DNA of 62,894 bases, filler included, from Asterionella formosa (Eukaryota), in NCBI GenBank assembly GCA_002256025.1. It is 15 parts of 15 records of this genome, joined end to end, with 100 filler letters (N's around TTAATTAATTAA, not from the genome) between each part and the next. Parts side by side here need not be neighbours in the genome. Positions count along the whole stretch, not along the records: positions 1 to 22,015 come from NKIB01002887.1; 14 more parts are not named here. One strand, 5' to 3'. The position numbers and the translations under genes were made by a program. The notes beneath the pieces are model-generated. The model had not been told where the DNA came from, made no database searches, and was given only the letters and a program-made list of their open reading frames with translations. Shown piece by piece: positions 1-60,970 of the stretch (its first letter is position 1; each line of letters opens with the position of its first letter).

Positions 1-686
1 AACTGGTCATGATGGACGACGATTGGCATGGTGAAAGGTGAATTGCCGGAGTCCACTTTTCAGGAGACGAACAAAAACGAGGTGAATTCTAGATATAAAT
101 TATTAGAATCTGTATAGTATATAAAATAGTTTCCTTAAGTAGACCCCTTGCCGATTTCGGCAATCCGAGGGCTGGAAAACCGAGGGGCAATTGGCGTCTG
201 TTGTCTTGCCAAAATGCAAACATATGAAATATACAACAAATAATTTAATGATGGGCAATATCGGACCTTTGGCAATTTTCGAGGTGAAGATAGGAAATAT
301 ACAAAATATATTTTATATGATGGGCAATAGTAGGCTAAAATTGACATTTATGCTAAATTTGTAGGCAGTAGGTAAGCGAATGGCGCGACAATACCGGTAG
401 CTAGTTTGTGAATTGCCTCAACAATACTCGCGTACGGTCAACCTACTCGCGCCACCCAGCCTCGAACACATGTACCGGTATACTCGCAGGCAAGAGACCA
501 CCTCGGGCGTATATTGCCTTCATCAATATGTAGTCTTTATATTTTGAAGAAATAGTTATTACGAAATATGACTGTACTCGATCCGGGTATATCAATCTAC
601 AATAGGCTAATATATACAGTAGACTCCGCTGTTTGTCATTCATGAGTATACCGGTATTTCGAAAGCGGCTGATTGTTTCCAACACA

Positions 687-2123
687 ATGAGCTATTGTCC
701 AATTGATGAACCATTTGAAACCTACGAGGACGACCACGCCAGTGCAAAAAATGACAAAGACACGAGTCGATGGAATCAGAGCTGGTTGCGAACTTTACTT
801 TTGTTTTTAAACGGATCAACAGATGAGTGGGCACAACGACGACTTAAGCGACTGCTGCAGCTCCTTGGATCGACCACCGCCTGCTTGGTCATCGCCTACT
901 GGTACCGAAAGAGAAGAAAATTGGATTTTAGACAGCTAGATAAGTTTTCGTTCCTGTCTCGGTTCCTCACCAGGAAAGCTTACTCCCATGCAATGGACAC
1001 TCCTCTATCGACCCTCTACCACGCCATTAAATCTGGCGGCATTACAAAAGCAGTCGCATTGACTTCAAAGTCAGCTATCGCCTACGAAATAGCGGGAAAT
1101 TGGAAACGGTCATCCATTCCATCTACCCAGCTTCACTCGTCGATAGTGGAGCAGCTTGCCTCAAGTGGTACTGATGTGTGTTCAGAACCGGACTCCATCC
1201 TATCCAAACTATCAACGCCGCTGACTCTTTTCATTCCATTCATTTATCTTGGAATGCTTTATAAAATGATGAAGCACTTGAATGGAGAGAACGACGAAGC
1301 AAAAACGCACGTCAATGTAAAGGTAGCCGCCACTTTTCGTTCTGTCGCTGGACTGGATCATGTGCTATCTGATTTGTCAGAAATTGTATTGTATTTACGA
1401 GATCCAAGGATTTACAATTCCCTCGGAGCACGTCCACCAAATGGAGTCTTGTTGTATGGGCCACCCGGAACAGGAAAGACGCTACTAGCTCGGGCTGTGG
1501 CTGGCGAGGTCGGGAATTGTGATTTCATTGCCTGCAGCGGAAGTGACTTTGTTGATATGTACGTAGGGAGAGGGGCAAGTCGTGTAAGGAAGTTATTCAG
1601 TAAGGCACGGCAGTCGCAGCGATGTATTTTGTTTATTGATGAGCTGGACGCCTTGGGCAAGTCGAGGAGTACGACTTCGTTTTCTGGCAACAACGATGAA
1701 AGAGATCAAACCTTGAATCAATTGCTTACCGAACTCGATGGATTCAACCAACACCCCAAACATTTGCTCATTTTTATGGGAGCCACCAATCGAGCGGAAT
1801 TGTTGGATCCTGCCTTGCTACGACGCATGGATCGACAGATTCATGTCGGGCTCCCTGATCAAGTCGGACGGCGCGCAATACTATTAGTACACGCGCAGAA
1901 GGTTCAGTGTGACACAGCAATTGATTGGAACTACTTGGCAACTCAAACAACTGACTTTTCTGGGGCAAATATTGCTACGGTAGTGAACGAAGCTGCATTG
2001 TTGGCCGTTCGAGAAAGGTCGCCAACAGTAAAGCAACACCATTTGATCCGGAGCATCACCAAGCTTCAAATGATGAAGCGGGCTTTGAGTGGCATGAGCG
2101 GAAGCATTCATTTGAGATATTAG
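687..2123 (+). CDS. FtsH-like membrane AAA+ ATPase lacking the M41 protease domain
   Basis: Two hydrophobic segments, Walker A GPPGTGKT, pore loop FVDMYVGRGA, Walker B FIDELD, ERDQTLNQLLTELDGF, ATNR..LD.ALLRR. Stops just after the AAA lid with no HExxH. ATG 687 preferred over the TTG at 633. Confidence 0.85.
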   Translation: MSYCPIDEPFETYEDDHASAKNDKDTSRWNQSWLRTLLLFLNGSTDEWAQRRLKRLLQLLGSTTACLVIAYWYRKRRKLDFRQLDKFSFLSRFLTRKAYSHAMDTPLSTLYHAIKSGGITKAVALTSKSAIAYEIAGNWKRSSIPSTQLHSSIVEQLASSGTDVCSEPDSILSKLSTPLTLFIPFIYLGMLYKMMKHLNGENDEAKTHVNVKVAATFRSVAGLDHVLSDLSEIVLYLRDPRIYNSLGARPPNGVLLYGPPGTGKTLLARAVAGEVGNCDFIACSGSDFVDMYVGRGASRVRKLFSKARQSQRCILFIDELDALGKSRSTTSFSGNNDERDQTLNQLLTELDGFNQHPKHLLIFMGATNRAELLDPALLRRMDRQIHVGLPDQVGRRAILLVHAQKVQCDTAIDWNYLATQTTDFSGANIATVVNEAALLAVRERSPTVKQHHLIRSITKLQMMKRALSGMSGSIHLRY

Positions 2124-3004
2124 CAGTCAAAATTGTTCTTTACACTGTACTTCTTGATGCATGTTGTGATTTAGAACTCATTAATGAAATTGTTGAACTT
2201 TGTTTTGATAATTAAAAGGTTAGAATTTTGTTTTTCGAGGAATGTAGAAAAGAACCACATTACTTTCTCCATCCCACCATGGGTGAGAAGCCAAAGAATA
2301 GAAAAATGACCGAAACCTAATTACGACCATCAGCCCAAAACTGACTTTCGTGAGTGCTTAAAGCAATGTCTGGGCCTGATTCCAATTTTTTTGAAGCCAC
2401 CATAGCCATTGAAATTTCTGCTTGTTTGTTGCTCCCAAGCAAATCTCCATAAAATGATTCTCCATATCAAGTACATTGCTGTTTCCTATCATTGGTTCCA
2501 TGAGTAGGTCCTCACCAGCATGCTCTGCGAAATTTTAAAATTTACACTGCTGTCGTCAATCCCACTCATATTTTTACCAAGGTCGTTTTGAAGAGAAATC
2601 TACAGTTATTTACAGCCTCTCAGTGTTTGGTGATGTTTTGCCTCCCTTGCTCAGCTGAAAGGGAGTGTTAAAACCCAATATCTATCTGTCCTTAAATTTT
2701 TTTCCGTAGTATCTTTCAGTCACTCCTGGTCAACCTCTATCCCTCATGCCGATTCCACCATCACTAACTTCCTGTCCCTCTAGATTGACTGTTGTCAACT
2801 GGAGAGAAACTCCTAGCTTCATTTTTTACAAAAACAAATTTTTAGCTCAACTTATTCCTGCAAACATGTAGTGGGCGGGTTAAAGCCAAGTTGTGTACTA
2901 AGCATTCATTCCAAATGCAATCTATGTCAAAAGTTACAATAATGGTATTTATGATAAAATGGATTATGACTAAAAAATATACACATCATGCCAAGCAAAT
3001 GTGC

Positions 3005-3375
3005 GTACCTGGTACCAGGTACCAGGTACCAGTAGTATTGTTTGTTAACATGATGAATCATAAATCATTTTTTTGATATACCGGGTACCTGTATAATCAG
3101 TGTACTGAAGATGTAACGATTTGTTGACACCATCACAAAATATGCATAATGCATACCAGGTACAGTACCTGGTACTGGTACCCTGGTACCAAGTGCCAGG
3201 TACTGGTATGTTGGTACGTGGTACTATATTTAAAAACGAAACCTTCAAACAAGCAACAAGTTACCGGTACCGGTACCGGTACCAGTACCCTGGTACCTGG
3301 TACCAGGTACGTCCAATACAAATCACATACGGTACCTATAGCTATGGTACCTGGTACCAGGGTACCAGGTACCAG
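3005..3375. repeat. GGTACC(W)/TACCGG low-complexity palindromic array
   Basis: Dense ggtaccaggtacc, ggtacctggtacc and taccggtaccggta units ending ~55 bp upstream of the ATG at 3429. Confidence 0.9.
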
Positions 3376-3428
3376 TAGCCATAAATAATGGACACATTCG
3401 TGTCACCAAGGATTCACTTAGGTATGCC

Positions 3429-4040
3429 ATGAAGAACACGATGAGCTTGATCGCTTTATTCGCCGCTTTCGTTTTGGCTTCGATGGTGAGCGCTTTTCAG
3501 ACGAAGCATGCTGCATTTCACCGACGACTATCCGTACTTGAGGCAGAAATATCGACCGAAAGCTTTTTGGCCCAAAATTATCCTGCTTTCTTTTCTGTTG
3601 TGTCTAAGAACGAAGAAGTTATGAAGTTGCTGCGAGAAAATCCAGAATCAGGATACACCATATTTGCATTTAATTTCAAAGCCTTTGAAGCATTGGGAGA
3701 AAAGAGGCGAATGCAACTTTCTGATGATCGAAACCTTGAAACAACACAGAAAATCGGCGCCTACCACGTTGTTGGAATTGAAGCCGTTTCGGCAGAAAAG
3801 CTGTTCTCCTCTGGAGGCATTGTGACACTTGGTGGTGTTGTCGACGTGGGTCGTTCTGTCTCTGGTGGATTCCTTGGAGTTGGCGGTAAAGAAGATGGCG
3901 GCATTACCATTAACGGAGCCAAGGTCGTTGAATCCTTTACCATCTCGAGGAGTTGTATTGTCCATGAAGTAGACTCCCTTCTTTCACCCCAACTCCTTTG
4001 GCGCTACTTAGACCAGCTGAGGATTCCCTTCTCTTCTTAG
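3429..4040 (+). CDS. Fasciclin (FAS1) domain protein, probably plastid-targeted
   Basis: YTIFA-N-AF, YHVV, ITINGAKV, IVHEVDSLL FAS1 motifs; signal peptide ending VSA-F. Confidence 0.8.
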   Translation: MKNTMSLIALFAAFVLASMVSAFQTKHAAFHRRLSVLEAEISTESFLAQNYPAFFSVVSKNEEVMKLLRENPESGYTIFAFNFKAFEALGEKRRMQLSDDRNLETTQKIGAYHVVGIEAVSAEKLFSSGGIVTLGGVVDVGRSVSGGFLGVGGKEDGGITINGAKVVESFTISRSCIVHEVDSLLSPQLLWRYLDQLRIPFSS

Positions 4041-5376
4041 GGATACATGTTAGATTCAATAGAGTATAGGATGGTGATTAACTCTCTCCTTTGTTAAAAT
4101 TTGGTTGGTTATTTCAAAATGACTAATACATACATATGCACCAACTGATGCTCGCTTTGGTGGCAACGTGGATAAATGTTGTCTGAATGTAGGATAATCT
4201 TAAATATAGTCACTGCAAATTGAAAGGGGACAATGCGGAGTTATATGTGCATAATTCTTATTGTTAGCAAATAATAATTACCATTGTTATGTATTATAGT
4301 TCATGTGGGGAATGCATTATAATGGATAATTGTTGAAAAAACAGAATTGGTAAGTTATAATCAGCAGCATTGGAAGAAATTATTGATGTGTGCTTATGCA
4401 ATAATGGACTGGCACATTCTGTTACAGAAATATGCAAAAAGTACATGGATATGTGGTAAGTGAAGATAGAATGGAAGTGTATGCTGTGATGTAAACAAAA
4501 CATGACTAACAAGTAATTGCTTCTCACTGTTAGTATGATTGGGAACAACAATTCAGAATCAGAGTTATGGAAGGGAGAGAGACAGCAAGCAGTGGATGGC
4601 ATTCAAAATCAGAGTAGAAGGGAAGTGGGAGAAACAGCAAACAGTTAGACACAAAGAGAAAGGGGAACATTGTGTAGCCACTTGAAATATAGAAGCAGAG
4701 TATTCATGTTTATATAAGGAAAATCTAGGGGCTATAGATATCAGTGATCCAATCCTTTAAATACATGGCAGTCCATTTTGGAAGGCAATTCCAGGGTCTA
4801 TAGCAAATTTTGTTAGTAGCTTAGCAATTCGAAAACAGAGCCTATGAAATATGCAACTATGTTTTTAATGAAGAGTAATTGCAGAATTGAGCAACCCTAT
4901 AACTGAACATATGAAATATCCACATGGAGGGCAATTGGCCAATCTGCATCAAACATCTTATAAACTACATACATAAAATAGGTTTAAAAGTTAGTGGAAA
5001 GGGCAATACAGCTGCGAAAGCGTCGCCGATAGCCATGTCGTAATGGTACATACCGGTAGGTTGTCACTTCTTCCCTATCTACAGCACATGTACGAATATA
5101 CCGGTATGCATGTCCCACATAATACCGGTATATATTACAAATATTCCATATCATGACGGCCTAGAAAGTGTTCCTTGACGCCTTGCTTGCCACACTTTTT
5201 TATAGTTCCCTGTTTCATTTTCAAAGAAGAACGTACCGGGTACTTGCATAAAGGACTTGCTTATGCATTCGACCAGAAGGTTCAATACACATTGACGACT
5301 CTACAATTCCACCGTAGTACTTTTACGCTAGCGATACGGCTGATGCTCATCATATATTCCCTTTTCAAAACAAGTC

Positions 5377-7644
5377 ATGAGGACATGTACGAAGCGCTAT
5401 CACTATTCAATCGATGCAGCTGAAGCCTTGCAACTTTGCCAAGAACGCTTGAAGCTTATAATCAACGCGAAAAACGAAGCTCCTGATGTAATGTATGATC
5501 TTGAATCCGGCCTGAAGTCCACTGAACGTATCATTCGAACACGACTAGTCAAACTGATCGATCTGGAACGTCAGGATGTGTTGGAGTCATCTCTTTCTGA
5601 AATCCTGGAAGCGGAACACGATGAAGAATTTGAAAGCGTGCCAAATTCGCTAGTAGCGAGTATAACTGCTCTTGAGACTGTCATGAGAAGGAAAGCCGAA
5701 TATGCAACGGATCATAATCAACAAGAACACCAGCATCACGACCGCTACAATCCTATGAAAATTACGCATCCAATGAGAGAATCATCATCAGCAACTTTCT
5801 CGCCAATACAAATATCTACCGGTACCTTCACAAATCAACCTTCTGTAGATTATGCCGACACTTTATCTGCCCTACCGGGGAGAAGCGTGACAGATTCCCT
5901 ACTTTTTCGTCTCGTTGTAGCGTTACAACTTTGTCAAGTCCGAATTGACGTTGCTCACCATGTTATTACAGGACGACATCGGGAAGACTCGGGATTACCA
6001 AAGTCGACAAACTTTACAGCGTTTGCCAGTGTATGCATGATAGCCGGGGCGCTCGGAGTATTCATTTCGCGAAGGGGTACAAACAGCAGGGACTTGTCGC
6101 AATGGTCGACAAAAGCTGCTGCCGGAGCAGTTCTATACACAATTGCAAGACAACAATTGCGACACTATTGGATGGCTGCTAAAATAGCCAAAAGCATTGA
6201 AGAATTGGAAGAATGGCGCAATCAGTGGAATCATGTACACCAACATGACGAAGATGGGAGCGTCTCCATCGAAACAAAGTCACAGAGGTTAATCGAATAT
6301 GCTCTGACGCAAAGTCCTAAATCGTCGTTCTGGCACTCTGAAGGTGAGCTTCGTTTTCTGATGGTCAAACGCTGCATGGACCTATTGTACGCCTCCGTTG
6401 GTACAGCGGTTGAAGTGACCAACGAAAACAACGATTGGCAGATACCATTGGTAGCTATGGCAGCTACATACTATTCTTTTGTTGGCGCGAACCGAAAAGC
6501 ACACGAAGCAGTTTCCTCAGCAGCAGCACAAGATCTCATTCGGAGTGCATGGGGTATGGTTTCCTTGCCAGCGATCAAACTGTTGTCTCTAAAGGCATCG
6601 AGGTTGTTAAAAAGAGCGGCTTTGGCGGAGAGGATTACTATTGGTGGGGTTCCATGTTTCATTTTATCAAAGGATCCTTGTCCTGAAATCATAGTTTCAC
6701 TCAAGCGACATGAGCGACAAGAAAGTCGTCGATCAAATTTTTCGAGACTGTCAACAATTGATGAAAGCAACGAGAAACAACTGTCTAGATACGAACGAAG
6801 GTCCATTTACCTGAAGAAGCGCAACGTTCTCTTGCATCTTACCGGAGGTGGCTTCTTTTCTCACATAATCGCTACTGATTTGCCATATTTATTGGATTGG
6901 AGTGCCAAGTCGGGTGCGGTCGTGATTTGCCCCGAATACGCTCTACTTCCTGAAGCTCCCTTCCCAATCGCCTTAGACCAAGTGATCAATGTGTACATCT
7001 CATTGCTAAATGGACATTCCACGTCTATCCTAGGATTTGAAGTGGACCGATTCATTGTGACAGGTGAATCTGCAGGAGGTAATTTGGCGGCAGCATTATG
7101 CGTCAAACTATGCTTACAGAGAACTAATGATATTGAACCCGTGTTGGCCGAACGTCAGTTGGAGTGTCGACCAACAGAGCTTGAGACAGAATTAGGAAAT
7201 CAGTTGTCTGCCTTGCGGCTTCCCGATGCCCTTATGCTGTCGTGTCCTGCATTGAACATGTCACTAGATGTTTCCTATTCTCGAGTGGTTGGAGGCGAAG
7301 ATCCCGTGTTGCCTGCGGGGTTGATATCTGCCATATCTGATGCCTACATCCCTTCGGGGGTAAACAAGAAAGACCCCCTCGCTTCTCCACTGTTCGCACC
7401 TGACTATGCTCTTCAGCACTTTCCACCGACACTTCTCTTCGCTAGCTCTGACGATCCTCTCTTAGACGACAGTATCGATTTTAACAAACGATTGCGATGT
7501 TTGGGTGTGGAGTCAGAGCTCAAGGCTACCCACCATGTGCCGCACGCCTTTTGGGGTCTTGGCACTGCAGGCTTCCCAGAAGCGATTCAAGTTCAAAAAG
7601 AATGTGAGAATTTTCTCGTCAGGCATTTCAATGCAGGAAACTGA
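5377..7644 (+). CDS. Hormone-sensitive-lipase-family alpha/beta hydrolase with long N-terminal region
   Basis: LHLTGGGF oxyanion motif, PEYALLPEAPFP, GESAG nucleophile, DPLLDDS, PHAF catalytic His. Confidence 0.85.
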   Translation: MRTCTKRYHYSIDAAEALQLCQERLKLIINAKNEAPDVMYDLESGLKSTERIIRTRLVKLIDLERQDVLESSLSEILEAEHDEEFESVPNSLVASITALETVMRRKAEYATDHNQQEHQHHDRYNPMKITHPMRESSSATFSPIQISTGTFTNQPSVDYADTLSALPGRSVTDSLLFRLVVALQLCQVRIDVAHHVITGRHREDSGLPKSTNFTAFASVCMIAGALGVFISRRGTNSRDLSQWSTKAAAGAVLYTIARQQLRHYWMAAKIAKSIEELEEWRNQWNHVHQHDEDGSVSIETKSQRLIEYALTQSPKSSFWHSEGELRFLMVKRCMDLLYASVGTAVEVTNENNDWQIPLVAMAATYYSFVGANRKAHEAVSSAAAQDLIRSAWGMVSLPAIKLLSLKASRLLKRAALAERITIGGVPCFILSKDPCPEIIVSLKRHERQESRRSNFSRLSTIDESNEKQLSRYERRSIYLKKRNVLLHLTGGGFFSHIIATDLPYLLDWSAKSGAVVICPEYALLPEAPFPIALDQVINVYISLLNGHSTSILGFEVDRFIVTGESAGGNLAAALCVKLCLQRTNDIEPVLAERQLECRPTELETELGNQLSALRLPDALMLSCPALNMSLDVSYSRVVGGEDPVLPAGLISAISDAYIPSGVNKKDPLASPLFAPDYALQHFPPTLLFASSDDPLLDDSIDFNKRLRCLGVESELKATHHVPHAFWGLGTAGFPEAIQVQKECENFLVRHFNAGN

Positions 7645-7728
7645 ACAAGGACAAAGCTATTGACAGACACTAGCAAAGGAATAACAGATTCAAATGACAT
7701 TTCACCGGAACTAGGCATGGGTACTAAT

Positions 7729-9270
7729 CTAGATCTCGTCATCTACAAAATTTGGTTGATAGGTTTGCCTTGCCAGATACACAAACTCCAATAGGGCAGA
7801 TCCTTCAGAAATTTCCACTTCAAAATCATTCTTGGCCCTGAGCGTTGACGCCCAAATTTTTCTAAGCACCAAAGTTGCCTGAGCCGATGCAAATTGCAAC
7901 CGCCCTTCCACCACGCCACCTAGTGCAGAGTAGTTCCCTGAAACCCCCGAAATGTGTAGTTGCTTCTTGGCTAGATTCGTCTCCAGTGGTTTCCAAGCAG
8001 TCGATATCGCATCCCAGGGGCCCGCTCGAATTGTCACGACAAGTGGCGACAAATAAATTGTCATGAAAAAAGCTTGTTCGAATTCCAATACAAGGTGTGA
8101 TCCACCATTAGATGACTGGACCAAATTGGCCCTCTTTCGTCGCAGTGAACACAGTAAACTAGATGAAGCTTTCCGATTTCCCTGGAACAAGAATTTAGCC
8201 TTATGCACCATTATTCGACTCCCTACATTCGCATCTTCGCCCACGACTTCGACGGGTTGTTGTTCCATAATTTTCGCCCATGCATCTTCCAGTTGTACTC
8301 CAGCAACGGCTGTTTCCGGCAAGATATGATCTGACATTTCCAACAAATATTCAATTCCCGCAATCGCCGAGGCGTGGCACTTTACCAATACATTGTCTGG
8401 TGCATCTTGCCGGTTGACCAAAGCCAAAAAAGCAACAAGGCCCGAGGAAGCGGCCTTGAGTCGTTCCAAATGGGATAGTGCGGCAGATCGCTGACTTTCC
8501 AATGCACGTCCAGGGGGTGGTATTACCTTTTGAGCTGCTTCCAATGATTGCATCAATACTTTAAGAGCCGTGTCTTGGTTACAAAACTTATTAATTCCAA
8601 AACGATGCACGGCTGCCTTTGCCATGAGTTGGGCGGTTGCGCCCGTTAATTCCGTTTCTAATTTCGCCAAGGTCTCGTGGAGAAACAAGTCTGGCTTGGT
8701 TAGTTTAACAACGTGCGAGCGTATATTTTCGACACGTTGCTCTAGATGAAGTGCTAACTTTTCCGCGGACACCAGGTCTCGCACCTTTGCGGGCCCTCCC
8801 AGCAGTCCCAGTTGCAACGCCCAATGATTGGCATTGTCCGTGTGTTGCTTTAGGTGTATGCCTTTTTCTTCTCCGTGCTTGGATTGCATCTCGACGACGG
8901 CTGTAGCGGCGTTCTCGCAAATGAATAAAAGTGTCGGTCCGTACATGTTCTTCAATTCAATAATTTTGAGTTCCAACGCCGATTGCTCGTTCTTCGGTGT
9001 CGCTTCTCGGGGTGGCTTGTATGTCTTTTGAAGCTTCTTGAGGCGCTTGGTGAGTTTCCTTTTGTAATCTTCATACGACGCAGAAGTGGTAAAGACACCA
9101 GCTTCGAAACGCGTAGATAGCACTAGTTTGCTGGAGGAAGTTGCACCAGGTTCTAACGATGCCAAGACTTTCGCAATCTCGCGAACTTCCTTATTTCGGG
9201 AGGATTGCGGGACCTTTTGGCGCCACTCCGAATCGATTTCGGTCGGCACATCAGGGCCTGGAGATGACAT
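7729..9270 (-). CDS. KIX-domain protein, Mediator subunit 15-like
   Basis: N-terminal WR...R...I...L...RFE..VF..SASYEDY...L..RL pattern of Med15-type KIX domains; remainder not recognised. ATG at 9270. Confidence 0.6.
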   Translation of the reverse strand: MSSPGPDVPTEIDSEWRQKVPQSSRNKEVREIAKVLASLEPGATSSSKLVLSTRFEAGVFTTSASYEDYKRKLTKRLKKLQKTYKPPREATPKNEQSALELKIIELKNMYGPTLLFICENAATAVVEMQSKHGEEKGIHLKQHTDNANHWALQLGLLGGPAKVRDLVSAEKLALHLEQRVENIRSHVVKLTKPDLFLHETLAKLETELTGATAQLMAKAAVHRFGINKFCNQDTALKVLMQSLEAAQKVIPPPGRALESQRSAALSHLERLKAASSGLVAFLALVNRQDAPDNVLVKCHASAIAGIEYLLEMSDHILPETAVAGVQLEDAWAKIMEQQPVEVVGEDANVGSRIMVHKAKFLFQGNRKASSSLLCSLRRKRANLVQSSNGGSHLVLEFEQAFFMTIYLSPLVVTIRAGPWDAISTAWKPLETNLAKKQLHISGVSGNYSALGGVVEGRLQFASAQATLVLRKIWASTLRAKNDFEVEISEGSALLEFVYLARQTYQPNFVDDEI

Positions 9271-10980
9271 TGCCTTGTGTGATTGAAGCAAAACAGGAGT
9301 GTGAGGATTGACGGAGGAGGATCACCGAATCAAGCGACCAGTATTGGCAAGGTTTTCCCGTCATGGAATGGTATATATATAGCTTTTTGTACCTGTATAC
9401 AGGGTATAGAGCATTCTGCGAATGTCAAGACGTTTTATTGTTATCGGAGTCTTTCAGGCTAGGCTGAATTCAGTCAATCCATTGCCCCTTGTTCAATTCA
9501 TTGATTATTTCATTTTTGAAAAGATAATCTATATCTACAGAACTGAAGGTTTCTGGAAGTATGCATGGTAATAAGTTTCGAGGTTAAAAAATTCAGCTAC
9601 ATGACATCAAAAAATTATCTGTTCACCAGGATGGCGCAAAAATGAAAATTAAAAATTGACAATCTGCAATGGTGCCATCATTTCATGCCTTTCCAAGTTC
9701 ATTCGCCCATCATTGTGGGTCAGAAATCATCATGTGAATATCGAAAAGGTTCACTGACTTGAAAGAATGACAGTTCCATGGAGAGAGCTGAAGAAAATCA
9801 GAGGGCAGGAGGTTCTGGCCATTGTGGTCACAGCTCTTGGGACTAGCTATGGATGATGCTGATATGACTGAGCTGTATGCTCTTGAAAGCAATTCAATAT
9901 TGGGGAATGGCTTAGTGGTTATCACACCTCATGAGGTGGTAGGTGTGATTCCTGCACTCTCCACCTGCCTTTTCTTTTATGTAGTCCCTAATTGCAGATG
10001 ATTAACACAATATAAAAACCGACTAGATTTGCAGTCAACTTTGGAGCAACAGCATTTGTATGAGGTCATATCGCATCTCCCTGTCGATTGTCTTTTGCAA
10101 TTGAAATACTATGAATTTCAGTAAATTAAATGTTATGGCGAGCTTGTGATATGTGATGGGTTTGTGAAAGGAATTTCCTTTGTAGCTGAAATTACGCTCT
10201 GCAGGCAGCCTTCTCAATTGTAGGCTTGGAAATATCTGTGGTCAGAGGACATATCTCGCATCTCTGCTGTCTTTCCACTCAGATGTGTTCAGGTGGCAAA
10301 GTGGAATAGTGTCAATATCACCTCTCTTCTCCCAAAAGTGAAGGGTCAGCACAGACAAGGAGGAAAGTGGAGTCTGTGGCTGTTGAGAGAGCAAGTAAAT
10401 GGTTCTTGTTGGCGTTGTGAGCATCTGTTTATACTCAGTACAGAGTATCGGGGGGGGGGGCGGGGGCATCACCAGTCAGAGCATGTATCTGATCGGAGTG
10501 GGTAGTGAGGGGCAGCTTGCAGCCATCACAGACAGGTGGTGGCCTGCAACACTGCTGTAGTGCCACTATGGGCAGCAAAGGTCTGCCAGAAAATGCCCTC
10601 AACAGCAGACTCATGGCATGCTATGATGTTTCAACATGTTGACAATATGTATGCAGCAGCACTCGCTTCTGTAGGACAGTAAAGAAGTACTATGATGGAT
10701 CCAGGGCAAAGGAGTGGTAAGGTCTGATAAACTACTAAGCACACTGTTAACAATTGCTGTACTTATCACAATTAACCACTGGACACAGAGAAATACAGTT
10801 ACCAATTGATGTCTTCTACATGCCCTGTTGGAAATACATACTGCTGGTAGCAGTAGGCAGCCGCCTCCCATAAATCCATTCAAGTTCGGGCACATACGTA
10901 CGTATTGGCAATACGTGGTGTCTTCACCATACAACTTACTGTTCATGTTCATTGACTACCGGTGTACCTGGTGACACACT

Positions 10981-11086
10981 GGTACCAGCAAGGTGCGGTC
11001 ATTTTGCTCAACCAAACAATTCAATATCGAATGAAGATAGCTAAACCTTTTGTTTCAGCACAATTACCGCAACTTGCACCGGTACC
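10981..11086. mobile_element. ~100-bp MITE (family A), reverse-orientation copy
   Basis: ggtaccagCAAGGTGCGGTCA...TTACCGCAACTTGcaccggtacc; internal AAGATAGC matches GCTATCTT of the other copies. Confidence 0.7.
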
Positions 11087-11301
11087 AGCTATGCATTGAT
11101 AAAATAATATATATTCATAATACTAGATAACATATATATATTATTTAAAAAAAAATTATTACACATGTACCACTCCTCCCATCATCGATGACTCGTTCGT
11201 AGCAAGTCGATGCCCATCAACACATCTCTTCTTCGACTTCTCACCAACACCAGGAAAAGTCCTAAGTTTTCCTAACTCGTACATTTACGTAGTACCGCAC
11301 C

Positions 11302-13960: not shown

Positions 13961-15239
13961 CCTCGTAAATAGTCTGAAAAACTCCTTGGAGAGACTGATT
14001 GTTTGGGTTTGATGTTTTGCCATTCAAAACTTCACCTAACTCCCTCTCTTTGTGAGTCTTAGTTAGTAAATGGAGAGCGACTGCATCATGGGAGAGGGCT
14101 TCTGGAAAATGGAAAAGGATGAAGATAATGCGCCGTGATTTTATTGCACCCAAGAAGAAACGAGGAACTAGCATGAGTAGAGCAATTTCCAGATGGCCAG
14201 ATTCGGGAGGTGCTGCTGGAGGTTCCTAGTGTTGCATCCAAAGAAAGTTATTTTCGATAACTTCTAGTAATGGGATCAAAAATGGATTGTGCATCCAACA
14301 ATCAACCAATCGACCTATCCATCAGCCGTACGAACTGACTAGAATGGGGGATGGTACATGGATGCTCTATAAAGATAGTGGCATTCCTGTCCATCATTCC
14401 AATAGCCTCTAATTGACCAGCAACTGTGTGTATCGGAGTATAATATTGCAAGTATAGCGGTACCAGGGTAGGCTGTTGCATCAGGAATGATAATTACTGT
14501 GACCATGCATGCTGTATATACATATAACGATACATATGTTCATAGTATTGGCAAGGCTATCAGGGGGTAGTGGTTGTGTCTGTCCATGCATGTACTTCAT
14601 AGGCATAAGGGACATTCAGAAAATCTATTCATATTCGCAAATTATAGTTGTTTACAGCAAATCCTAGCTAGTCATATAATGTCAGCAAGTTCAACATGTA
14701 GAAAGAGATGATTCCTATTTGTATTCTGAAGCTAGAAGACGGTTTGCTGAAAGAGTTCATCAGTCAGAATATCTGAGTCGTGTTCAAAGACTGATTCTGC
14801 AAATCGACATGGTCAATAAGAGTAACGTTTTCCTAAATTACTTAAGGAATATTATTTCCATCGAAAGCTGGCATATCTTTTCCAGCAGCAGGCATGAGAT
14901 GAATCATTTGGAGTGAGTCGAAACTGAAAAGGTGCTCATAAAATGTGCGCTACCAAGAAAAAACTGCATTGACACACTGACAATATCAAAAACACTTCTT
15001 GTTATAAAAAAGCATTCATTTTCCATTTCTTAAGCTCTAGAATGTATCTTAAGCATATACTGGATGGATTCATACTGTTAGTTTTCAGCCAACTTGTCAT
15101 TGATGTATCGTAAATGTAGGTCAAAAGTGGCGATCGAAAAAAGCGAAAAGCACGTATTATCCCAAGTCTGGAGTTCTCATCTTAGGCTGTGTAAGGGCGA
15201 TTGCAAGCAATAAACGATACACAGCTGGTCTTCATGTCG

Positions 15240-16001
15240 CTACAGGAAGGTACTTGTTGGGTCCTGAAGTGGTTGATGACCAGCTGAAAAGGAAGAGGCA
15301 TGTGGAAGAAGTGCAGAGTGAGCAAGAGAATAAGAAAATAGATGCACACACGGCGCTTGCAAACAAGGTTTATGCAATCAGAATGCTTCACAAACAGCCA
15401 GCAGAGTGGACAGTGGCACAAACGAAAACAATTGCAACGTGGTGCAAGCAAGCAGGCAATCTTCCATTATCAACAACAAAGAGAGATGCGTAGCAATGAT
15501 GCTAGTCCCAGTTGCAACTGTAATGACGCCAATTCCTTACCCTTTGGTTGTTCCTATTAGATGACAAGATATGCTGGGAGGACCACCAGTCTAAGAATGA
15601 TGCAACAAGGACTACTGCAAAAAAATGCGAGAAGTCTTTTATGGAACCGACAAGATAAAATGGGAATGCCAGCAGTATAAGAATGATGCAACTACTGCGA
15701 AAAGAATGCAAACAACATAATATTATCTAACTGTCACCTATAAAAATAACTACATGTATGGTAGAATTTTGATCAATGGCTTTGAGCCACTTCGACCAGT
15801 TTTGTCACTTTAAAAATGGATAGATCTCAGTTAATTCATGTTCAAGTAAACTGATCTAATTCTCATATAGCTTAATGAACTAACTACCAGTAATACTGTG
15901 CCAAAAGGCGAACAAAGAGGGGATTGATTTTAGCATAACTCTAGAATTACCAGTAGTTGGAAAACAATATAATTTCACGGCTCAAAGCCATTTATTACTG
16001 G
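15240..16001 (+). mobile_element. 3' remnant of a DNA transposon (pogo/DDE_1-like C-terminus) with right terminus
   Basis: Fragment PAEWTVAQTKTIATWCKQAGNLPLSTTK; 14-bp inverted repeat AATGGCTTTGAGCC (15776) / GGCTCAAAGCCATT (15979); ends ...TTACTGG followed by TA. Confidence 0.45.
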
Positions 16002-16320
16002 TACCAGGTACCGGACCTTCCAGGGTACTCCAGGCTCCATGGGGGTGCCTGGTGCTCCTGGTATATTCCACACCAGCAGGCAAACCAGTTTTTTTAGGTG
16101 TTTGCCATCCCGCCGGCGGGAAAGCAAAATAGATTGCCGTGTGTATACATCTACTTATGTATAAATATATGAGTATATATTATACGCATGTCATTAAAGG
16201 AATACATGACAGCAATCATTTGCTTGCGATTTGCTTGCATGCTCATTCTAAACTCGTTTCGATAGCGGAATACAGCTACCGGAATACGCCAAAAAGCCCA
16301 AGTGCGTTCTGGGGGTGCAA

Positions 16321-17159: not shown

Positions 17160-17905
17160 TATCCGTTCCTCTTGATATCAAAAATGATTTCCATTCCTCT
17201 GTAGTACGCAGTTTATAAAATTCCACCAATTCCAAAACTATCATAGTTAAGGAGTACATACGTTTAGCAATTCATCTATAACTCTCTCGAATTACGTGCT
17301 CAAGCAAGGAACCGCTCCTCACTGTAAAAAAATCAATCGATCCTTGCCTGAAATATTTTACATACTGAAGACTACCGGTAATTAACCTATAAAATACATT
17401 GTACAGGTAATCACAATGAGTTGGATTGCGAATAGATGTACAGCACTCTATATAAATATCAACAGCCAAGACTGAAAATTTCGATTGTTTGAGGATGATG
17501 TAAACAATATTTGTACAGCTGGATGCTATATACTGTATGCTGCAGTTATCAGGCGACCCTTACGTGTGCTGATATGTTGTCTATATACAGTTGTAATAAT
17601 TTATGTACCGGTATGCACATGGAGGCGAGGTCTCCCATCAATATATGCCGGTACATACATATGTTTATGTATATCAACATATGCGGGCATTACCGGGACC
17701 TGAAGTTGTACTACCAGGGTACCAGGTACTCCCTCACAAGGGTATAGTCAACATGTAGAAGCACAAGTTCTCGATTGATTCTTCTTTTGCATGGAATCGC
17801 CTTGCTGACATACCATTATCTTATCGAACAAACACAACAAATAACTCATCTCGACTCTGAACAATTCTGTATCTGCTGCACTTCGAATACAACTGATCAA
17901 ACGAA

Positions 17906-20359: not shown

Positions 20360-20510
20360 GTCTACTGGTACCGCCTGGTCCTGGTATATCGGGTTTACCG
20401 GTTTTACTGGTTCTGGTACCAGGTACCGTACCTGGTTTTAGTCAATTCTATAGGATGGTATCTATCCTTATACCAGGTACCAGGTCCTCCTGGTACCTGG
20501 TACCCGGTGG
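20360..20510. repeat. GGTACC(W) array
   Basis: Repeated ggtaccaggtacc / ggtacctggtacc upstream of the phosphatase start (20198, minus strand). Confidence 0.8.
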
Positions 20511-37700: not shown

Positions 37701-39385
37701 CTACCTCTGGAATGCGGCATATTGCTGTGATGTCTTAAAATATAGAAATGAATTCGATTTGTTACATAAGAATCAACGCAAAGAATGCATGCCACCTCAT
37801 TTCCAATAGATATTGAAATGACATACGTAGGTGGGTTGAAGTATAAATTCTATTAAAATGAATGAAAATAGTAAAATAGTAAAACAAACTTATCACTATT
37901 AGATTGAGAGCGTTTAGAAACAGGTTTGAAGCCAGTGTACATGTCGTTTGGGTCCTTGTTTTTCAATAGGGATCGAACCCCCTTAAAACAACAGTCAGGA
38001 AATTCCATCCAAACACCTCTTCCCACTGGTCCACAGAAAACTCTGATTAGCTAAAACTTGTACAGAAGATTGCAGGCTCTTGATGCCATTATGTCTTTGT
38101 TCTTCAATCAGCTGAGAATGGATTCACCTTCCAAGAAATTTTCCACCAACTCTTTGACTTCATCCCATCAGCACTGGCATTCATGCAACTAGCTAAAATC
38201 ATAGTATTAGCAGAAGATGTGACTCTCACATCGCTCCCTCCAACAAAGCTGACCCTACAATCAACCGGTCTTGGCATGTAGCTAGGACAACTATAATGAC
38301 TGTAGTTGAATTTGTCATTGCCATTGCCATCATTGTGATGTGTAATTTTGCTCATGGTGGTTGATTGTTGCATTTTTTGTTTCTAGCTCATCAACAATAT
38401 TTGATATGCTGCCATATACATTGACTGTATTTTGGGTATATATACATCAAGCGATGTAGAATGTTTATAACAATATTTAGCGAATTTGAAAGGGAATCTA
38501 TGTTCGTTTGCGCAATTTCGTCCACTGATTGAATTTTTTCAAATGTAATCATGTCATTCAAGTTCCTAAAATTCTTAGTTCCCCCAGGGGATTTCGACAA
38601 CCCTAAGCAATATTTTAATTTTGCCGTAGGGTTGAGGAGGGACGTAACCCCAGACAAGCCACGAGGATGGGAATTGTTCCCCCCCACAAGTGTGTACGTA
38701 GACTACAGGATAAATAAGTCCATACAGGCAGTATTGGACGAAATAAGTCGTTGTCCACAGATGACTTCCACTTTCGACAACGGCTTTCTTCGCCTGCTCT
38801 CCATAGTGCTGGTACCAGGTTACCAGGGACTTCAACCAAGGTGGGTGCCCAGTACAAGGTAGCCCAACCTGGTACCTGGTACCTGGTACCATCCCTGGTG
38901 AGTTCCCGTAACAAGGGATCATGCCAAATGCGATGACTGGTTACCTCTAGCATCAGGTAGTCGTGATATGATGAACTCGTGATTCACAGATGACCCTAGT
39001 ACTATCTGTACATTCGTCATCGGCCACAGTTGACTTCAGACACTGATGGAAATGACATTCTTCGCTAGCAGTGCAGGATGACCCTGAAAAGGTGCCTTAC
39101 AAAATTACTCCGAAACTGGGCTTCATGTACCAGCATGATACCGCTACTTGTTTACTACAGACATTGCCCTACCGGTACATACAGATGCAATAGTTCATAG
39201 GGTCCATATGCCAACTGGTAGGGTACCTGGTACCAGGTACAAGTTACTATGAGCCAACGAGCCATTCACACAACACGAATTGTACGCCGGTAACTCACAT
39301 TTTAAGTTTCTTTAAGTCCCCTTCATCCACTTCATTGAGTACACATTTCTAATACACTATCCGCCAAAACTCAACGCACTTTGCC

Positions 39386-48563: not shown

Positions 48564-48637
48564 AAAACTAAAATTGTAGCTGTCTTTATCTATTTCAAAT
48601 TGTTTATTTAAGCCAAATGACCGCAACTTGCAGGTAC
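48564..48637. mobile_element. MITE family A, right part
   Basis: ...agctgtctttatc...ATGACCGCAACTTGcaggtacc. Confidence 0.7.
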
Positions 48638-49412
48638 CACCCAGTTTCTACCAGGTACCAGGTAGCACTTGATCACATGCTCGATAGGAGCAGGAGTCGT
48701 ACTGGTATTATGCATAATGCCGGCAGGATGAAACGCACCAATATCTATGTTGAAATATATGGCGCTACTCTAGCGCGCTCCAGTACTGCCCTGGAATGAC
48801 CGGTCAAGATCTTTCTCACGCCGCTCGTCTGCAGCTTCTTCTGCTATATAAATCCTGTCTACCGGTATTTCCGTTTAGACATTCCTCAGACTACCTAGTC
48901 TTCGGACACCTGTCGACATCAACAGCCTAACAGACACACTCTGACATATCTACAGTATACCGTAGTCTACCTGATGGCATCATCAGCATATAGACTACCG
49001 GTATGTATGCGCCAGTTACATAACTATCTCCTTTCCATACAACATCTACGGTACATAACTCTGTGTGCACCGGGTATTCCATGAGCTATCTATTATTCTT
49101 TGCGCACGTATAAAACGTGGTCTCTATTTTCATACGGTCGTACACATACCGGAACGCAGTGCGTGCGCATTATTTAATCGGACACTATCATCCAACTTCA
49201 TCCAGGGGGAGCACAAAACAATGTGCACATCTCAAAATAAATACCGGTACATTCTTCACGGTAGGGTATCAACACAAAAAAGAGAACCAGAGATCGAAGC
49301 TGCCTGATGACGCTTGGTCTCAACCAACAATAATAGCATTGTTTCCCTCCTTTCCCATTCACACACACACACACAAAAATATATAAACTGCAGTGTCAGT
49401 GCTACCTGAGTA

Positions 49413-50007: not shown

Positions 50008-50028
50008 TGACCGCAACTTGCTGGTACC
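50008..50028. mobile_element. MITE family A right terminus at contig start
   Basis: TGACCGCAACTTGctggtacc. Confidence 0.65.
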
Positions 50029-50899
50029 AGGGTACTATACAAATTCCGGCACAGAACCTGGTACCAGGTACTAGGGTATGAGGACCAAGTGCGGAGCTAA
50101 TGTATTCGGTTAAATAGAATATTATCATGTTCTACGATACTCTTACTTACGACCTTTTGCAGCATACTGGTTTCTACCTGAAAGTTTTGGTATTCGCTCA
50201 AAATGAAGAATCGAAATTGAGCGAAACTTGTCCTGTGCAGATGCTGGGATTCAGAAGCTGAGGCACTTACCGGTACATTGTTATGTTTTGGCATTCTGAT
50301 TTGAGATTTGGAGGCTGGAAATTGGGGTTTTGTTCAGGTATTTAACTTTGTTGAATTTCTGGTAAGCATTTCTTGCACCCCTGTCATACCTGCAACCATG
50401 GGATGCATCCCTGCCTGAAGATGCTTACCATAAATTCATCCACTTTTTTACAAACTTACATTTTCATCGAAAATAAGCTTTTATACTGCATACGGCTGAT
50501 ACGTAATGAATCAAAATTTGGGCAATAGAATGTCTCTATGATTTTCTCCTTCATAGATGTAGACAATCAAAATGAAAACTCTTAATAGTTGAATACTCCA
50601 TGGCATCACCATGCATTGTCCTCTGGTGATGTTCGCACTGGTGCAGCACTTGGTTACAGCAATGTTGCAATACTCCATCAAAGTTAAGTGATGAATCGGG
50701 ATAGAGAAGTATCCGTTTGTCTGCCCGTGCTTGCATGGATGAAAAAGTTGGTCTTCTGTGAGGAAGTCATCAACTTTGCATGTGTCAGTTTGACAATGAA
50801 TTAGCTGATTGTTGATTGTTGTTGCCAGCAAAATCCACTCACGCTCCCACTTCATCCTTGAATCTCATCTGACAGACAGTTGCATTTGAGATCATGCCA

Positions 50900-52795: not shown

Positions 52796-55290
52796 NNNNN
52801 NNNNNNNNNNNNNNNNNNNNNNNNNNNNNNNNNNNNNNNTTAATTAATTAANNNNNNNNNNNNNNNNNNNNNNNNNNNNNNNNNNNNNNNNNNNNTTTTG
52901 AAAGGTGGTGAAGCATCAGGAAACTTGCAAGAAGTCTAAATGTTCATTTGTCACATTCTTTCTATTTAATTAAATAATTACCATATACTAGTAGTACATT
53001 TGCATATACTTTATCACTAGATTGGTGCTCTACCCTGCTTTATATCATTCAGCCAAATACTAGCTATGAGTAACACTCTGGCTATCTATGACCATCATAT
53101 CACCATTGCTTTGTACATATTCGTTAATACAGTATCAGTGTGGTTGTTTTAATACTGCTAGCTATCCTACTACAAGATTTGATTGACAATTTATCAGTAT
53201 AAAGAACAACTGGTAGTATATTTAGTGCAATAACTCATCGACCACTGATGGTACCAGTAGGGCTAAATCCTGTTGTATATGGACATAAAATTTCGTGTGC
53301 ACGTTTACCGTGTATCTCTCATGTACGTACGTAGTTAGTATGTCGTACAGTATTCGAAATGATCAACCAAAGAGGACTACTTAGACTAACATAATCCCGG
53401 CATTTCAAATCTGTGGGGAAAATCATCTACATTTTTCCGTCCAGTTGAGGTAATGAATTTTTGACTACTAACCCTAACTCCTTGCTGACTTCATATTGTC
53501 GCTGCACCACATTGCACCGGATCCTGATAAAAGGTCCTGAAAACACATCATCATCTACGTCACTGGTATATTTTCCACGTAGAAAAAAAGATTCCAGGTG
53601 GAAGCACATGAGGGAACGGAATCTTGATCAAACAATGCGACGACGAGTGTTCGGACCTGCGCCTGCCCATCTAATACGTATGCACAATTCTGTATATAAT
53701 GGTTCATACAGTGGTCCTGTTACAGTGCAGTTTCGTACCTGCGCCTACCCACCTCAATGCACATGCCCGACCCTTTGTAAACTGGGGTTCAAACTGTGGT
53801 CCCCTGGTGTTAAAGTGAGCTCATCTACGTAGTTAGGACTCGGAGTCAAACGAGTCAAACGATTCGAATGAGTCCACTTTGATGTACCAAGCTCTCATCA
53901 ACCACACATTATACTTTGCTACTCCGAATATAATGAGCCGGACAACATAAGCTATTTCGGAAGACCGATAGTTTGAAATGAATGATCATGGTTAAATACC
54001 TATGATCAGTAAGTGTGAGATAGACATGGGTCTATCTATGATTGTATGTTCCTAGAAATGCAAACAGCATTTGGAGAATAGTTCGTTTGTTTTGTTCAAA
54101 CAGAACAACCTAAACTAGATTAGTAAACTCACAATAAGAATATAGAAACGGAAAGAGAAACGAACGTCTCTATCTATAGTCTTCTTTGTCTAACGATATA
54201 GATCTATACAAAAGGTAATACTTTAACACGTTTATAAANNNNNNNNNNNNNNNNNNNNNNNNNNNNNNNNNNNNNNNNNNNNTTAATTAATTAANNNNNN
54301 NNNNNNNNNNNNNNNNNNNNNNNNNNNNNNNNNNNNNNTTGCTTCGCCTGAGAACAAAACCACGTTCGTTTGTTTCGAACTGTGCCTGTGCTCGGTACTT
54401 GTACGAATCCGAACCAATCTGCAGAATAAGGTAAGTTCGTGGTGATGTGGCAAGAATGTACGTAAACGATTATTTGTATCAAAGAAAGAGAGGAACAGAT
54501 TAAAGTTGCCTACTGGTGAAAATACTGACCTACTATGCATAGGCACCAACCAGGTAGTCGGTTTTTAGAAATCCTGCATATAGCGGTACAAGCATACCGT
54601 TGCAATCTACGCACTCTTGGGAATAGGACGAAACAAAAAATTAAACTTGAGATAGCCATCGCAAATGGAGCTTACAAGTTGATTCTGTAAGGACCAATCA
54701 GCAGCCGTCAATCAACGGTAATGACGTAGAGAAGGCATAAATATGACTCTCGAAAATATAGCTGTACATCTGTCCATACATGCAAAAACACATTATAGCG
54801 GGGGCATAATGAACTTCACACCTTTTTTGCAGTTGTTGTTGATAAACCTGAAACCTACCCGGTATGGTGGTTGGTGCATTCATGTACAAATTGATTGCGT
54901 TTCTCAATGTGCCGACCGGCAGATGTCAAATTTCCATAGCACCGTCGCAGAACAACAACGGACAAATAAAATAATAAATAATCTAAGACATTTCCCAGTT
55001 ATTCGATCCATTCTGTTCGTTTGGATTCGATGAAACGAGTTGTGTTCAACGACATTTTGTCCTAAAGTCGAGCAGTCATTACCGGAACTTCTATCGGCTT
55101 CTTGGGTGTTTTTGAGAACTTCATCGGACACAAGGATTGAATCCCTGTTGCTGCCATGGCAACAACAAGTTGCTTTCGTACTTACTACCCATTGACCATG
55201 TAGCAGGACAAAGAACAGTGGAATTAGCTATATGGTACCAGGTACCTGGTAGCAGTAAAGGGTACCAGGTATCTGGTTCTGTTACCGGTG

Positions 55291-55398
55291 GTACCTGCAA
55301 GTTGCGGTAACTTTGCTTTAATTAAAAGTTTTGCTATCTTTATCCGAGATTAAAATGTTAGTTTACGCAAAATGACCGCACCGCAACTTGCTGGTACC
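55291..55398. mobile_element. MITE family A, best-preserved copy
   Basis: ggtacctgCAAGTTGCGGTAA...TGACCGCACCGCAACTTGctggtacc, inside a GGTACC array. Confidence 0.8.
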
Positions 55399-55563
55399 AG
55401 GTACCGGTAATTAGTTGCTGGTCCGTCTTAAACAAGACAGCTATGTGCCAAGTCAGTACCGATTTCTCACACTACTTATGATGAGTTGCATTTCAATTTT
55501 ACCGGACACTTCGACATTTACGTAGGCAAATATGAACAGGCTACATGAACAGGCTACCGTATA

Positions 55564-55961: not shown

Positions 55962-56061
55962 ACAGGCAAGTTGCGATGAATTTGCTTAAACTAAAAGTTT
56001 AGCTATCTTTATCCCATATTAATTGTTAGTTTAAGCAAAATTACCGCAACTTGCAGGTACC
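55962..56061. mobile_element. MITE family A copy
   Basis: gCAAGTTGCGATGAA...agctatctttatc...TTACCGCAACTTGcaggtacc. Confidence 0.75.
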
Positions 56062-57224
56062 TGGAGTACCGGTACCGGTATCTACAGAAGGGCCGGGCCA
56101 AATGCGAACTGTAAGATACATACAGAATAGATATGTAGTAGGTAGGACAGAAGTATCCTTCCCATTTTTACAATGATGTGCGGCTCTCATAACATCTCTA
56201 CCAGTATACCGATGTATGTATTGTGCATTCCTATACCGGTAGTAGCCCTCATAACCACTTTAACAAACGAGCGCAGCATGTCGTTCATCCAATCAGAGCA
56301 ACATGTAACAGGAGGGCGTTCATTCAGAAAATTAGCACATATCACGATCTGGATTTATGAATCGGAAAGCTTCAGTCCACCTATGTAGTGGTATATATCC
56401 AAACAAATAAAAACGGTTATAGTTTTTTATCTTTCACCATGTTACTGGCACTCCCACTGTCCAATAACAGTCGAATTGAATATTCAAGTTTCTCTGGGGC
56501 CATTTTGACTCCTACAATTTCTCTCGCTCAATTGCCCTATTGAGCAGCTTGCTTTTGTGCATCTCAAAAAGCATACAGATGCCTGGCCCCCCATTTTTGC
56601 TGCCACCACCTCTTCTCAACAAATTATGAAAAATGATCAAACACCAGAAGAACATCGATTTGTCTTTGACTATGGTTTATGCAACTTCAAAGAAGGACCG
56701 CCTGCTGATGGAGAAGACAAAATTGATGGTCAGATCATTTTTGTGCATGGAACCATTAAATATTTGGCATGCAGGTTTAAAATTGATAAAATAACTAAAA
56801 ACAATAATTTTTGAACTGCGCCTTGAATTCTATTATAATGGCTGCAAATTCTTGACTGGCCATCCTCTAAAATACAACCATGAAAAAATGATTGCAGCAA
56901 TTAGAGACATCTAATATTGCAAACATATGACTCCTTGTAAATTAGCTGCTCAACAAATTTTTGGATTGCCAAAGATAATAGAGATAATGTAATATAGGAC
57001 CGCACACCAGAAGTGCAGTCAAGCCAAGAACGCTTGTGGAGGAGGATAAGATTAGTCATTTTATGTATTGTGTTCACCATTTACAATTTAACCAGAATCC
57101 AGATCAAGAATATCCTTCCCCTGANNNNNNNNNNNNNNNNNNNNNNNNNNNNNNNNNNNNNNNNNNNNTTAATTAATTAANNNNNNNNNNNNNNNNNNNN
57201 NNNNNNNNNNNNNNNNNNNNNNNN

Positions 57225-60644: not shown

Positions 60645-60970
60645 CATACCGGTACACATAAATCAACGGGTACCCTCCCAGGTACCAGTACCTACTGGTA
60701 CCATGTACAGAGAGACATACGTCCCCAGCTGTACTTATTTGGTTGGTGGTCAGGAGGTATTTACAAGTACATACGAGATGTGCCAGTAGACTTCCAGGTA
60801 CTCCAACCAGAGGAAGGTCCATCAATCGAGACATTTAGCTTTATCTTTTCGTAAGTAAAAAAGGTGTTCTGCAGTACCGGACCTGGTACCAGGTACCAGG
60901 TACCTGGTAACGTATTCGAGTTGCAGCGTACAAGAACGGCGCCGTACCTGGTACCATGTGTATGCCGGTA
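60645..60970. repeat. GGTACC(W)/TACCGG array
   Basis: Multiple ggtaccaggtacc units upstream of the zinc-ribbon gene. Confidence 0.8.

Follow-up and report, generated by a model that had tools for sequence, protein, structure and literature searches.

When Tc1/mariner elements excise, the donor site retains a few terminal bases of the element as 3' overhangs. The footprint left by Sleeping Beauty is TA-CWG-TA, and its central mismatch is resolved in either orientation. The available parts of published reports give footprints of 2-4 bp for Tc1/mariner elements and of 0-3 bp for ZB, which prefers an AT-repeat palindrome as its target (PMC7913693), and footprints of 0-4 bp for Passer, which is biased towards TSS and promoter regions (PMC9976928). 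From similarly partial sources, pogo spans DD29-56D and is present in stramenopiles (PMC7386202), NuwaI of the PHIS superfamily has CWG TSDs (PMC4482050), and cyanobacterial HIP1 (GCGATCGC) is a short and highly iterated palindrome (PMC4390886). Transposon footprints are already known; what is added here is the match of two scar classes to two element families. In the literature covered, largely open-access main texts, we found no report of GGTACC arrays or of footprint-built arrays.

The locus compared here with these systems comes from the assembly of the diatom Asterionella formosa (68.4 Mb in 15,436 contigs, allelic duplicates included). The window, meaning the whole stretch of DNA that was analysed, is 62,894 nucleotides long and joins 15 contig pieces with N-spacers; only positions 1-22015 are a single contig. 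A sequence-only reading of the window had suggested that arrays of short TA-separated units were built from transposon excision footprints. An array was found at each coordinate it had listed, spread over several contigs as it had said, and the units parsed as proposed into TA-CCWGG-TA and TA-CCGG-TA, with CCAG/CTGG and CCAGGG/CCCTGG as additional units. The description of these arrays as a satellite had to be abandoned; they are short micro-arrays of 2 to ~10 units and not a classical satellite. The arrays, single units and the gene beside the first cluster are as follows, with the strand where a feature has one:

473..480: TA-CCGG-TA inside a repeat copy, with a bare TA in one other copy
3005..3375: four micro-arrays (3005-3034, 3154-3208, 3262-3310 and 3346-3375) of TA-separated units
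3429..4040, plus strand: fasciclin-domain gene (PF02469, E 1.5e-10), its ATG at 3429 lying ~55 bp past the array cluster 3005-3375
16002..16016: array units TA-CCAGG-TA-CCGG beyond the terminus of the family B element
17712..17728: CCAGGG-CCAGG array, upstream of ORF 17897
20360..20510: degenerate array cluster, upstream of a minus-strand PGP-phosphatase-like ORF at 19406-20008
38810..38890: array cluster with CCTGG-CCTGG
39217..39240: CCTGG-CCAGG array, upstream of ORF 39353
48860..48867: TA-CCGG-TA with an empty TA in a paralogue
60645..60970: array cluster, with a candidate second PHIS-like MITE inside (~60790-60880), probable as judged from its sequence

The longest micro-array in 3005-3375 reads CCGG-CCGG-CCGG-CCAG-CCCTGG-CCTGG-CCAGG. 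A domain search placed TIC20 and fasciclin among the genes of the window. Two related genes in tandem (16252-17147 and 17897-18724, 71-74% DNA identity) each had an array immediately upstream. The amidohydrolase frame at 47122-48462 lies in a GC-rich piece of bacterial look, where contamination is possible, and LTR-retrotransposon remnants with Pol_BBD and RVT_2 matches are present at 30970-34650 and 58670-60010. Three of the sampled contigs (L081, L099 and L102) contained long inverted duplications, from several hundred bases upwards.

Both words were strongly enriched. TACCWGGTA occurred 32 times in the window compared with 0.20 on average in shuffled sequence, and TACCGGTA occurred 24 times compared with 0.24; none of 100 shuffles was as high in either case. 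Genome-wide, the three-GGTACC pattern GGTACCWGGTACCWGGTACC was present 2,186 times, and its reversed control 0 times. Fillers between two TAs were counted in 398 kb, a non-random sample of five large contigs picked for a match to the MITE A or family B elements described below, against the expectation of an order-3 Markov model. CCGG (class I, TA-CCGG-TA) was observed 160 times with 8 expected, CCWGG (class II, TA-CCWGG-TA) 117 times with 5 expected, CCAG/CTGG 99 times with 22 expected and CCTG/CAGG 31 times with 14 expected. CCAGGG/CCCTGG was observed 15 times with 1 expected, compared with 2 observed and 0.7 expected for the mirror words CCTGGG/CCCAGG; the simple 3+3 join, CCATGG, was observed 0 times in the 398 kb with 1 expected. 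The top fillers can all be written as a CCAG start plus a CTGG end. Unit density was ~1 per kb in the sampled contigs, and extrapolation from this non-random sample to an assembly with allelic duplicates gives an estimated total of about tens of thousands of units in the genome.

That arrays often lie 5' of genes was backed by a crude ORF proxy that ignores introns, with units per TA 3-5 times denser at the 5' than at the 3' ends of ORFs. By this intron-blind proxy, CCWGG reached 14.8 per 1000 TA in the 5' vicinity of ORFs, 2.9 in the 3' vicinity and 1.7 within ORFs; the values for CCGG were 18.6, 5.8 and 2.5, respectively. Across the sample and the window, CCGG was solitary in 145/184 cases and CCWGG lay next to another unit in 104/149. 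A G-TA-C context was found at 21 of 45 isolated CCWGG units and at 4 of 145 isolated CCGG units, compared with 7% of background TAs. Units of 4, 5 and 6 bases were intermixed within arrays.

The footprint idea predicted autonomous elements with matching ends, and a search for these uncovered young transposase-coding elements with ends CCG…CGG or CCAG…CTGG. PF03184 (DDE_1) had 93 matches in the genome, and PF13358 (DDE_3, Tc1-type) had none in the genome. Family P1 comprised 10 copies at 99-100% identity with a stop-free DDE_1 frame, a catalytic triad of the DD35D type and a TIR of 21 bp (CCGTAAAACCTGGTGTCTC directly after TA). TA was present at 14/14 P1 ends, and C followed that TA in 5/14, which indicates no bias. 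The ends of P2 and P3 are CCGTATACTTC and CAGTG, each directly after TA, and the termini of P1 and P2 are CCG…CGG. DDE_1, the DDxD triad, the short TIR and the TA TSD place P1 in pogo. Scanning the sample de novo for TIRs flanked by TA gave no further source MITE.

The element ending at 16001 does terminate in CTGG-TA, as the sequence-only reading had noted, and it proved to belong to a second group, family B, as the 3' part of a copy of ~2 kb that has decayed:

14961..16001, plus strand: family B element, decayed, 3' part (TIR …AAGCCATTTATTACTGG, then TA), with a transposase remnant resembling the DD37D Q families
15885..15890: 6-bp insertion within B that changes TA to TA-CCAG-TA, absent from 24 other fetched loci
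15948..15953: second 6-bp insertion within B that changes TA to TA-CCAG-TA, absent from 37 other fetched loci

An interpretation of 15885-16001 as a small TIR element was rejected, its apparent left end being the inserted TACCAG. Family B had 87 TIR matches (CCAGTTAWAAATGG), with full copies of 0.9-2.3 kb that were decayed; TA followed 47 of 57 ends, and C came next in 40 of these 47. The B protein remnant had 151 matches in the genome, and stretches were fetched for part of them. B shares the termini CCAG…CTGG with two further families, Q1 and Q2. The Q1 end is GCAGTTCTTTACTGG followed by TA, and 11 copies were 98-100% identical across the last 308 bp. TAC followed in 15/15 fetched Q1 ends and CCWGG in 6 of the 14 that were readable; genome-wide, TACC followed 46 of 71 Q1 ends compared with a 7% background. 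Q2 (L207) spans contig C14068 from TIR to TIR (CCAGTCAAAAACTGC directly after TA), with TA at both ends and an open frame of 779 codons that has no in-frame start. Residues D310, D459 and D497 were invariant in 41 aligned homologues, giving DD37D. The predicted Q2 fold had a pLDDT of 81, and its top 9 Foldseek matches were to Mos1, Sleeping Beauty and SETMAR with weak E-values (2e-3 to 7e-2). Pfam and PDB sequence searches with B fragments or Q proteins returned nothing relevant, the DDE_1 profile matched 0/41 B/Q members, and hhalign of B/Q against P1 gave a non-significant probability of 0.1%, though the motifs were in register. Named protein matches to a resident transposase came only from Fragilaria crotonensis, and freshwater metagenomes made up most of the labelled runs that contain the DNA, which points to a freshwater diatom. 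TIRs, a TA TSD and a DDE/D triad in a mariner-like fold (with weak fold E-values) are the ITm criteria, and by them B, Q1 and Q2 would be Tc1/mariner-fold DD37D families. Q1 would encode a transposase that inserts at TA and whose target is unusual in its G/C flanks.

MITE A, the other element that had been said to terminate in CWGG-TA within the arrays, is present in the window at five places:

10988..11077, minus strand: MITE A copy of ~90 bp with ends of the GCAAGTTGCGG…CCGCAACTTGC type and T directly repeated, the surroundings being array-like; the copy is no TA element
48565..48665, plus strand: MITE A part at a contig edge, then array units
50008..50070, plus strand: terminus of MITE A with array units, at the edge of a contig
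55230..55410: array cluster with a MITE A copy inside (55297-55391), which interrupts GGTACCTGGTACC at its T
55966..56080, plus strand: MITE A copy and a CCGG-CCGG flanking array; the paralogue L007 has an additional TA-CCGG close by

This family of ~90 bp had 1,326 TIR-word matches. The claim about its ends fell: a single one of 41 complete copies reads TA-CCAG…CTGG-TA, and the adjoining CWGG-TA is target DNA. At the inner boundary, C was present in 41 and G in 38 of the complete copies; W was directly repeated in 31/41, and the outer C and G were present in 29/41 and 31/41. A duplication of 1 bp (W) is suggested because the inner G/C is invariant and the outer bases vary. The reconstructed empty site was TACCWGGTA in 11 of the 41 copies, and MITE A ends at loci chosen otherwise had GC in 23/25. 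MITE A appears to be a PHIS-like passenger that lands in arrays, and is no TA-bounded source element. Its excision was also discarded as a source of the scars, as it would yield CCWWGG, and CCAAGG/CCTTGG was observed only 4 times with 1.8 expected in the 398 kb. Other MITE-like families, with GGAAGGTCCGGTA-type ends, also lay within CCWGG (~60790-60880, 14624-14954, L083, L088, L051 and L084). A DDE_Tnp_4 transposase frame (Harbinger/PHIS-like) at 57227-58153 may be a partner of the MITEs that duplicate W. Two contigs, L210 and L211, were identical up to TACCTGG-T (base 46 onward); L211 continues as TGTCAAGA…, possibly an LTR element in an array.

Comparison of empty with unit-carrying sites revealed de novo gains at bare TAs for class I. 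Two surveys were made: an indel survey of 865 kb of fetched, repeat-enriched DNA, with 628 indel events, and a separate survey of paralogous empty sites in 943 kb. In the latter, an empty TA was found at 20/399 CCGG sites compared with 10/3,033 sites of other 4-mers (P = 1e-12), at 4/248 CCAG/CTGG sites and at 3/172 CCG/CGG sites, counts in which a few events are possibly one ancestral event counted twice. Among the 628 indels, 25 were 6-bp TA-duplicating insertions, made up of 16 CCGG, 3 CCAG, 2 differing from CCGG by one base and 4 with other fillers; CCWGG was present in 0/4 TA-duplicating insertions of 7 bases. The 7-bp gain of CCWGG was seen de novo at 0/396 sites outside arrays in the 943 kb, where power was low because most CCWGG sites are in unique DNA without a paralogue; 10 array-to-array matches were dropped from this count. 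The 70 unfiltered CCWGG empty-site matches were array against array, nearly all self-matches, and were filtered out. Since the de novo gain of CCWGG was not observed, we infer the origin of class II. One further de novo TACCGG was found in L164, away from the array-length difference between L163 and L164. CCG-ended pogo elements carry TA-CCGG-TA insertions of their own (L151:2713 compared with L145; L154:2164). In the alignments of alleles and of paralogues, ~36 kb in all, no locus had both a filled and a scarred copy. For window positions 601-20600, the contigs of runs X5, X6, X10 and X19 were swamped by repeats and are represented by the best-supported rows; those of run X10 included gapped alleles, for example over 16982-17791. 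Four contigs in two pairs with equal array coordinates proved not to be alleles, and L168 and L169 gave no alignment.

CCAG/CTGG units may be CpG-deamination products of CCGG, a decay suggested by one B site that occurs in both forms, loci L037 and L042 having CCGG at the same TA as the B insertion at 15885. The excess of CCAG/CTGG over CCTG/CAGG (99:31) was set aside as evidence on end-joining, since the same excess would arise from CCGG by decay of its CpG. A further stereotyped class, in which TA becomes TA-GC-TA, was noted at window positions 38279-38284 and at many loci, with a paralogous empty TA at 29/321; for the class in which TA becomes TA-C/G-TA this was the case at 95/2,024. An element that targets TA and ends in G…C could have left both as scars.

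The orientation of neighbouring units spoke to the objection that slippage alone explains length variants. Slippage alone would make nearly all triplets same-orientation, and independent writing would make 50% of them so. Among the 2,186 triplets, 1,234 were same-orientation and 952 (43.5%) were mixed, so that slippage alone is excluded. Same-orientation pairs exceeded 50% (P = 2e-9), and mixed triplets were T-then-A in 595 cases and A-then-T in 357; because of this excess and this bias, the units were not written fully independently. A two-process model put the slippage share at ~13% of neighbouring pairs. Slippage does contribute: L163 has 8 extra identical same-orientation units compared with L164, a clear case and the only large allelic gain. 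Short tandem duplications are frequent in the genome.

The sole distant locus found was a fasciclin homologue of another diatom, 57% identical (L156). TACCGGTA and TACCWGGTA were absent from its 6.5 kb. Upstream of the gene (match at 3001) it has TA-punctuated words, such as TACTAGAGTATGCATACTCTAGCTAGTACTA, from the set G/C, GC, GAG/CTC and TGCA.

Taken together, these data suggest that at least two families of Tc1/mariner/pogo-type elements, which target TA and move by cut-and-paste, probably left the words behind as excision scars, and that the arrays grew by re-targeting. The original proposal stands in part, on TA-duplicating insertions of a fixed filler at bare TAs, young elements with matching ends, TACC targeting and mixed orientation; MITE A as the source did not stand, and a de novo gain of CCWGG was not seen at the 396 sites outside arrays. 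Class I as the scar of pogo DD35D elements is well supported. P1 and P2 would insert at any TA, and the left-over ends CCG and CGG would anneal through CG to give TA-CCGG-TA, scattered singly; part of these scars would decay at CpG to TA-CCAG/CTGG-TA. Class II, the array unit, is likely, though unproven, to be the scar of the CCAG…CTGG elements. B, Q1 and Q2 would prefer G-TA-CC, and their CCAG and CTGG ends could pair over CAG/CTG, leaving a mismatch in the centre and giving TA-CCWGG-TA in either orientation; a two-base overlap of the same ends would give CCAGGG or CCCTGG and not their mirrors. For this geometry the donor would have to retain about four terminal bases. Each scar would add the half-sites TACC and GGTA, and two scars would make GGTACC. 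Since these half-sites are the target of B/Q1, the family would be drawn back and arrays would grow stepwise, mostly upstream of genes. Some arrays would be lengthened by slippage, and PHIS-like MITEs would land in them. The promoter bias would, by analogy, fit Passer's promoter preference together with tolerance outside coding DNA. The target bias of the families tracks the context of the scars, with C after TA at 5/14 P1 ends and CCGG in GTAC at 4/145, compared with 40/47 for B and 21/45 for CCWGG. Against class II, its filler of 5 bases exceeds the footprints of 0-4 bp published for Passer and ZB, and the simple 3+3 join CCATGG is missing (0 with 1 expected in the 398 kb); against the scar reading as a whole, an estimated tens of thousands of scars face a few hundred element ends.

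An unlikely alternative is that TA-CCGG-TA units are true scars, and that the CCWGG arrays represent either a host promoter motif or an old seed that slippage and palindrome micro-inversion have enlarged. The CCAG-ended elements would then merely target the motif, their ends being alike by chance or through selection for harmlessness. The lack of a de novo CCWGG in the two surveys, the 8-unit slippage allele, the same-orientation excess with its T-then-A bias, the enrichment at ORF 5' ends and the targeting of CCWGG by unrelated MITEs as well would all agree with this. The mixed orientation of 43.5% would, however, demand very frequent flips, and the 15:2 ratio of CCAGGG/CCCTGG to its mirror is unexpected under homopolymer slippage. 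The combination of 4-, 5- and 6-base units in arrays also speaks against a host motif, as does the TA-punctuated array of different words in the other diatom's fasciclin homologue, albeit at one locus.

Two further processes have less in their favour. It is quite improbable that abortive transposase action or other break-repair at TA inserts a short oligomer of fixed sequence, with no element fully inserting and excising: the flanks do not template the fillers, which are identical to the termini of young resident elements, and the context bias of the fillers parallels the target bias of the families. Such a process would nonetheless accommodate scars that, by extrapolation, exceed elements by two orders of magnitude, the TA-GC-TA (29/321) and TA-C/G-TA (95/2,024) classes without an identified source, and the lack of a filled-versus-scarred pair in the ~36 kb of alignments. 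Replication slippage as the sole maker of words and arrays is very improbable. It draws on the 8 identical extra units of L163 compared with L164 and on the short tandem duplications common in the genome, but it is refuted for class I by CCGG gained at bare TAs with only TA duplicated, and 952/2,186 triplets are mixed where the model assigns slippage ~13% of neighbouring pairs. Excision scars with re-targeting thus remain our preferred explanation.

A wider form of that explanation, on which we are evenly divided, holds that the DD37D scar TA-CCWGG-TA rebuilds its own target GGTACC. This would have led to tens of thousands of orientation-random, gene-upstream units that act as self-propagating landing pads used by unrelated elements, and the TA-punctuated promoter words would differ between diatom lineages with the termini of the transposons resident in each. 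Footprints are usually seen as rare by-products; if this were true, they would rank here among the main authors of promoter DNA, with ~1 unit/kb in the sampled contigs. The loop of scar and target would build repeats without slippage, the record of scars would date and map past transposition once the elements vanish, and lineage-specific TA-punctuated palindromes 5' of diatom genes would have a possible origin.

Compared with the known systems, classes I and II resemble the footprints of Sleeping Beauty, ZB and Mos1 in the TA duplication, in a short filler from element ends and in a central mismatch that may go either way. They differ in a filler of 4-6 bp, in being fixed en masse in a natural genome and in being stacked. 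The AT-repeat palindrome given for ZB in the available part of its report differs from the G/C-flanked target TACC of Q1. P1 has DDE_1, DD35D, a short TIR and a TA TSD in common with pogo and Passer, whereas the B/Q transposases have no Pfam match and no significant profile match to P1. MITE A is nearest to NuwaI, as far as the accessible text on NuwaI goes, in that it inserts at C-W-G with the centre duplicated; compared with the CWG TSD described there, a 1-bp W duplication fits most copies better. Finally, HIP1, likewise a highly iterated short palindrome, arises by substitution, whereas the arrays described here are eukaryotic, non-coding and 5'-enriched, and probably arise by insertion with TA duplication.
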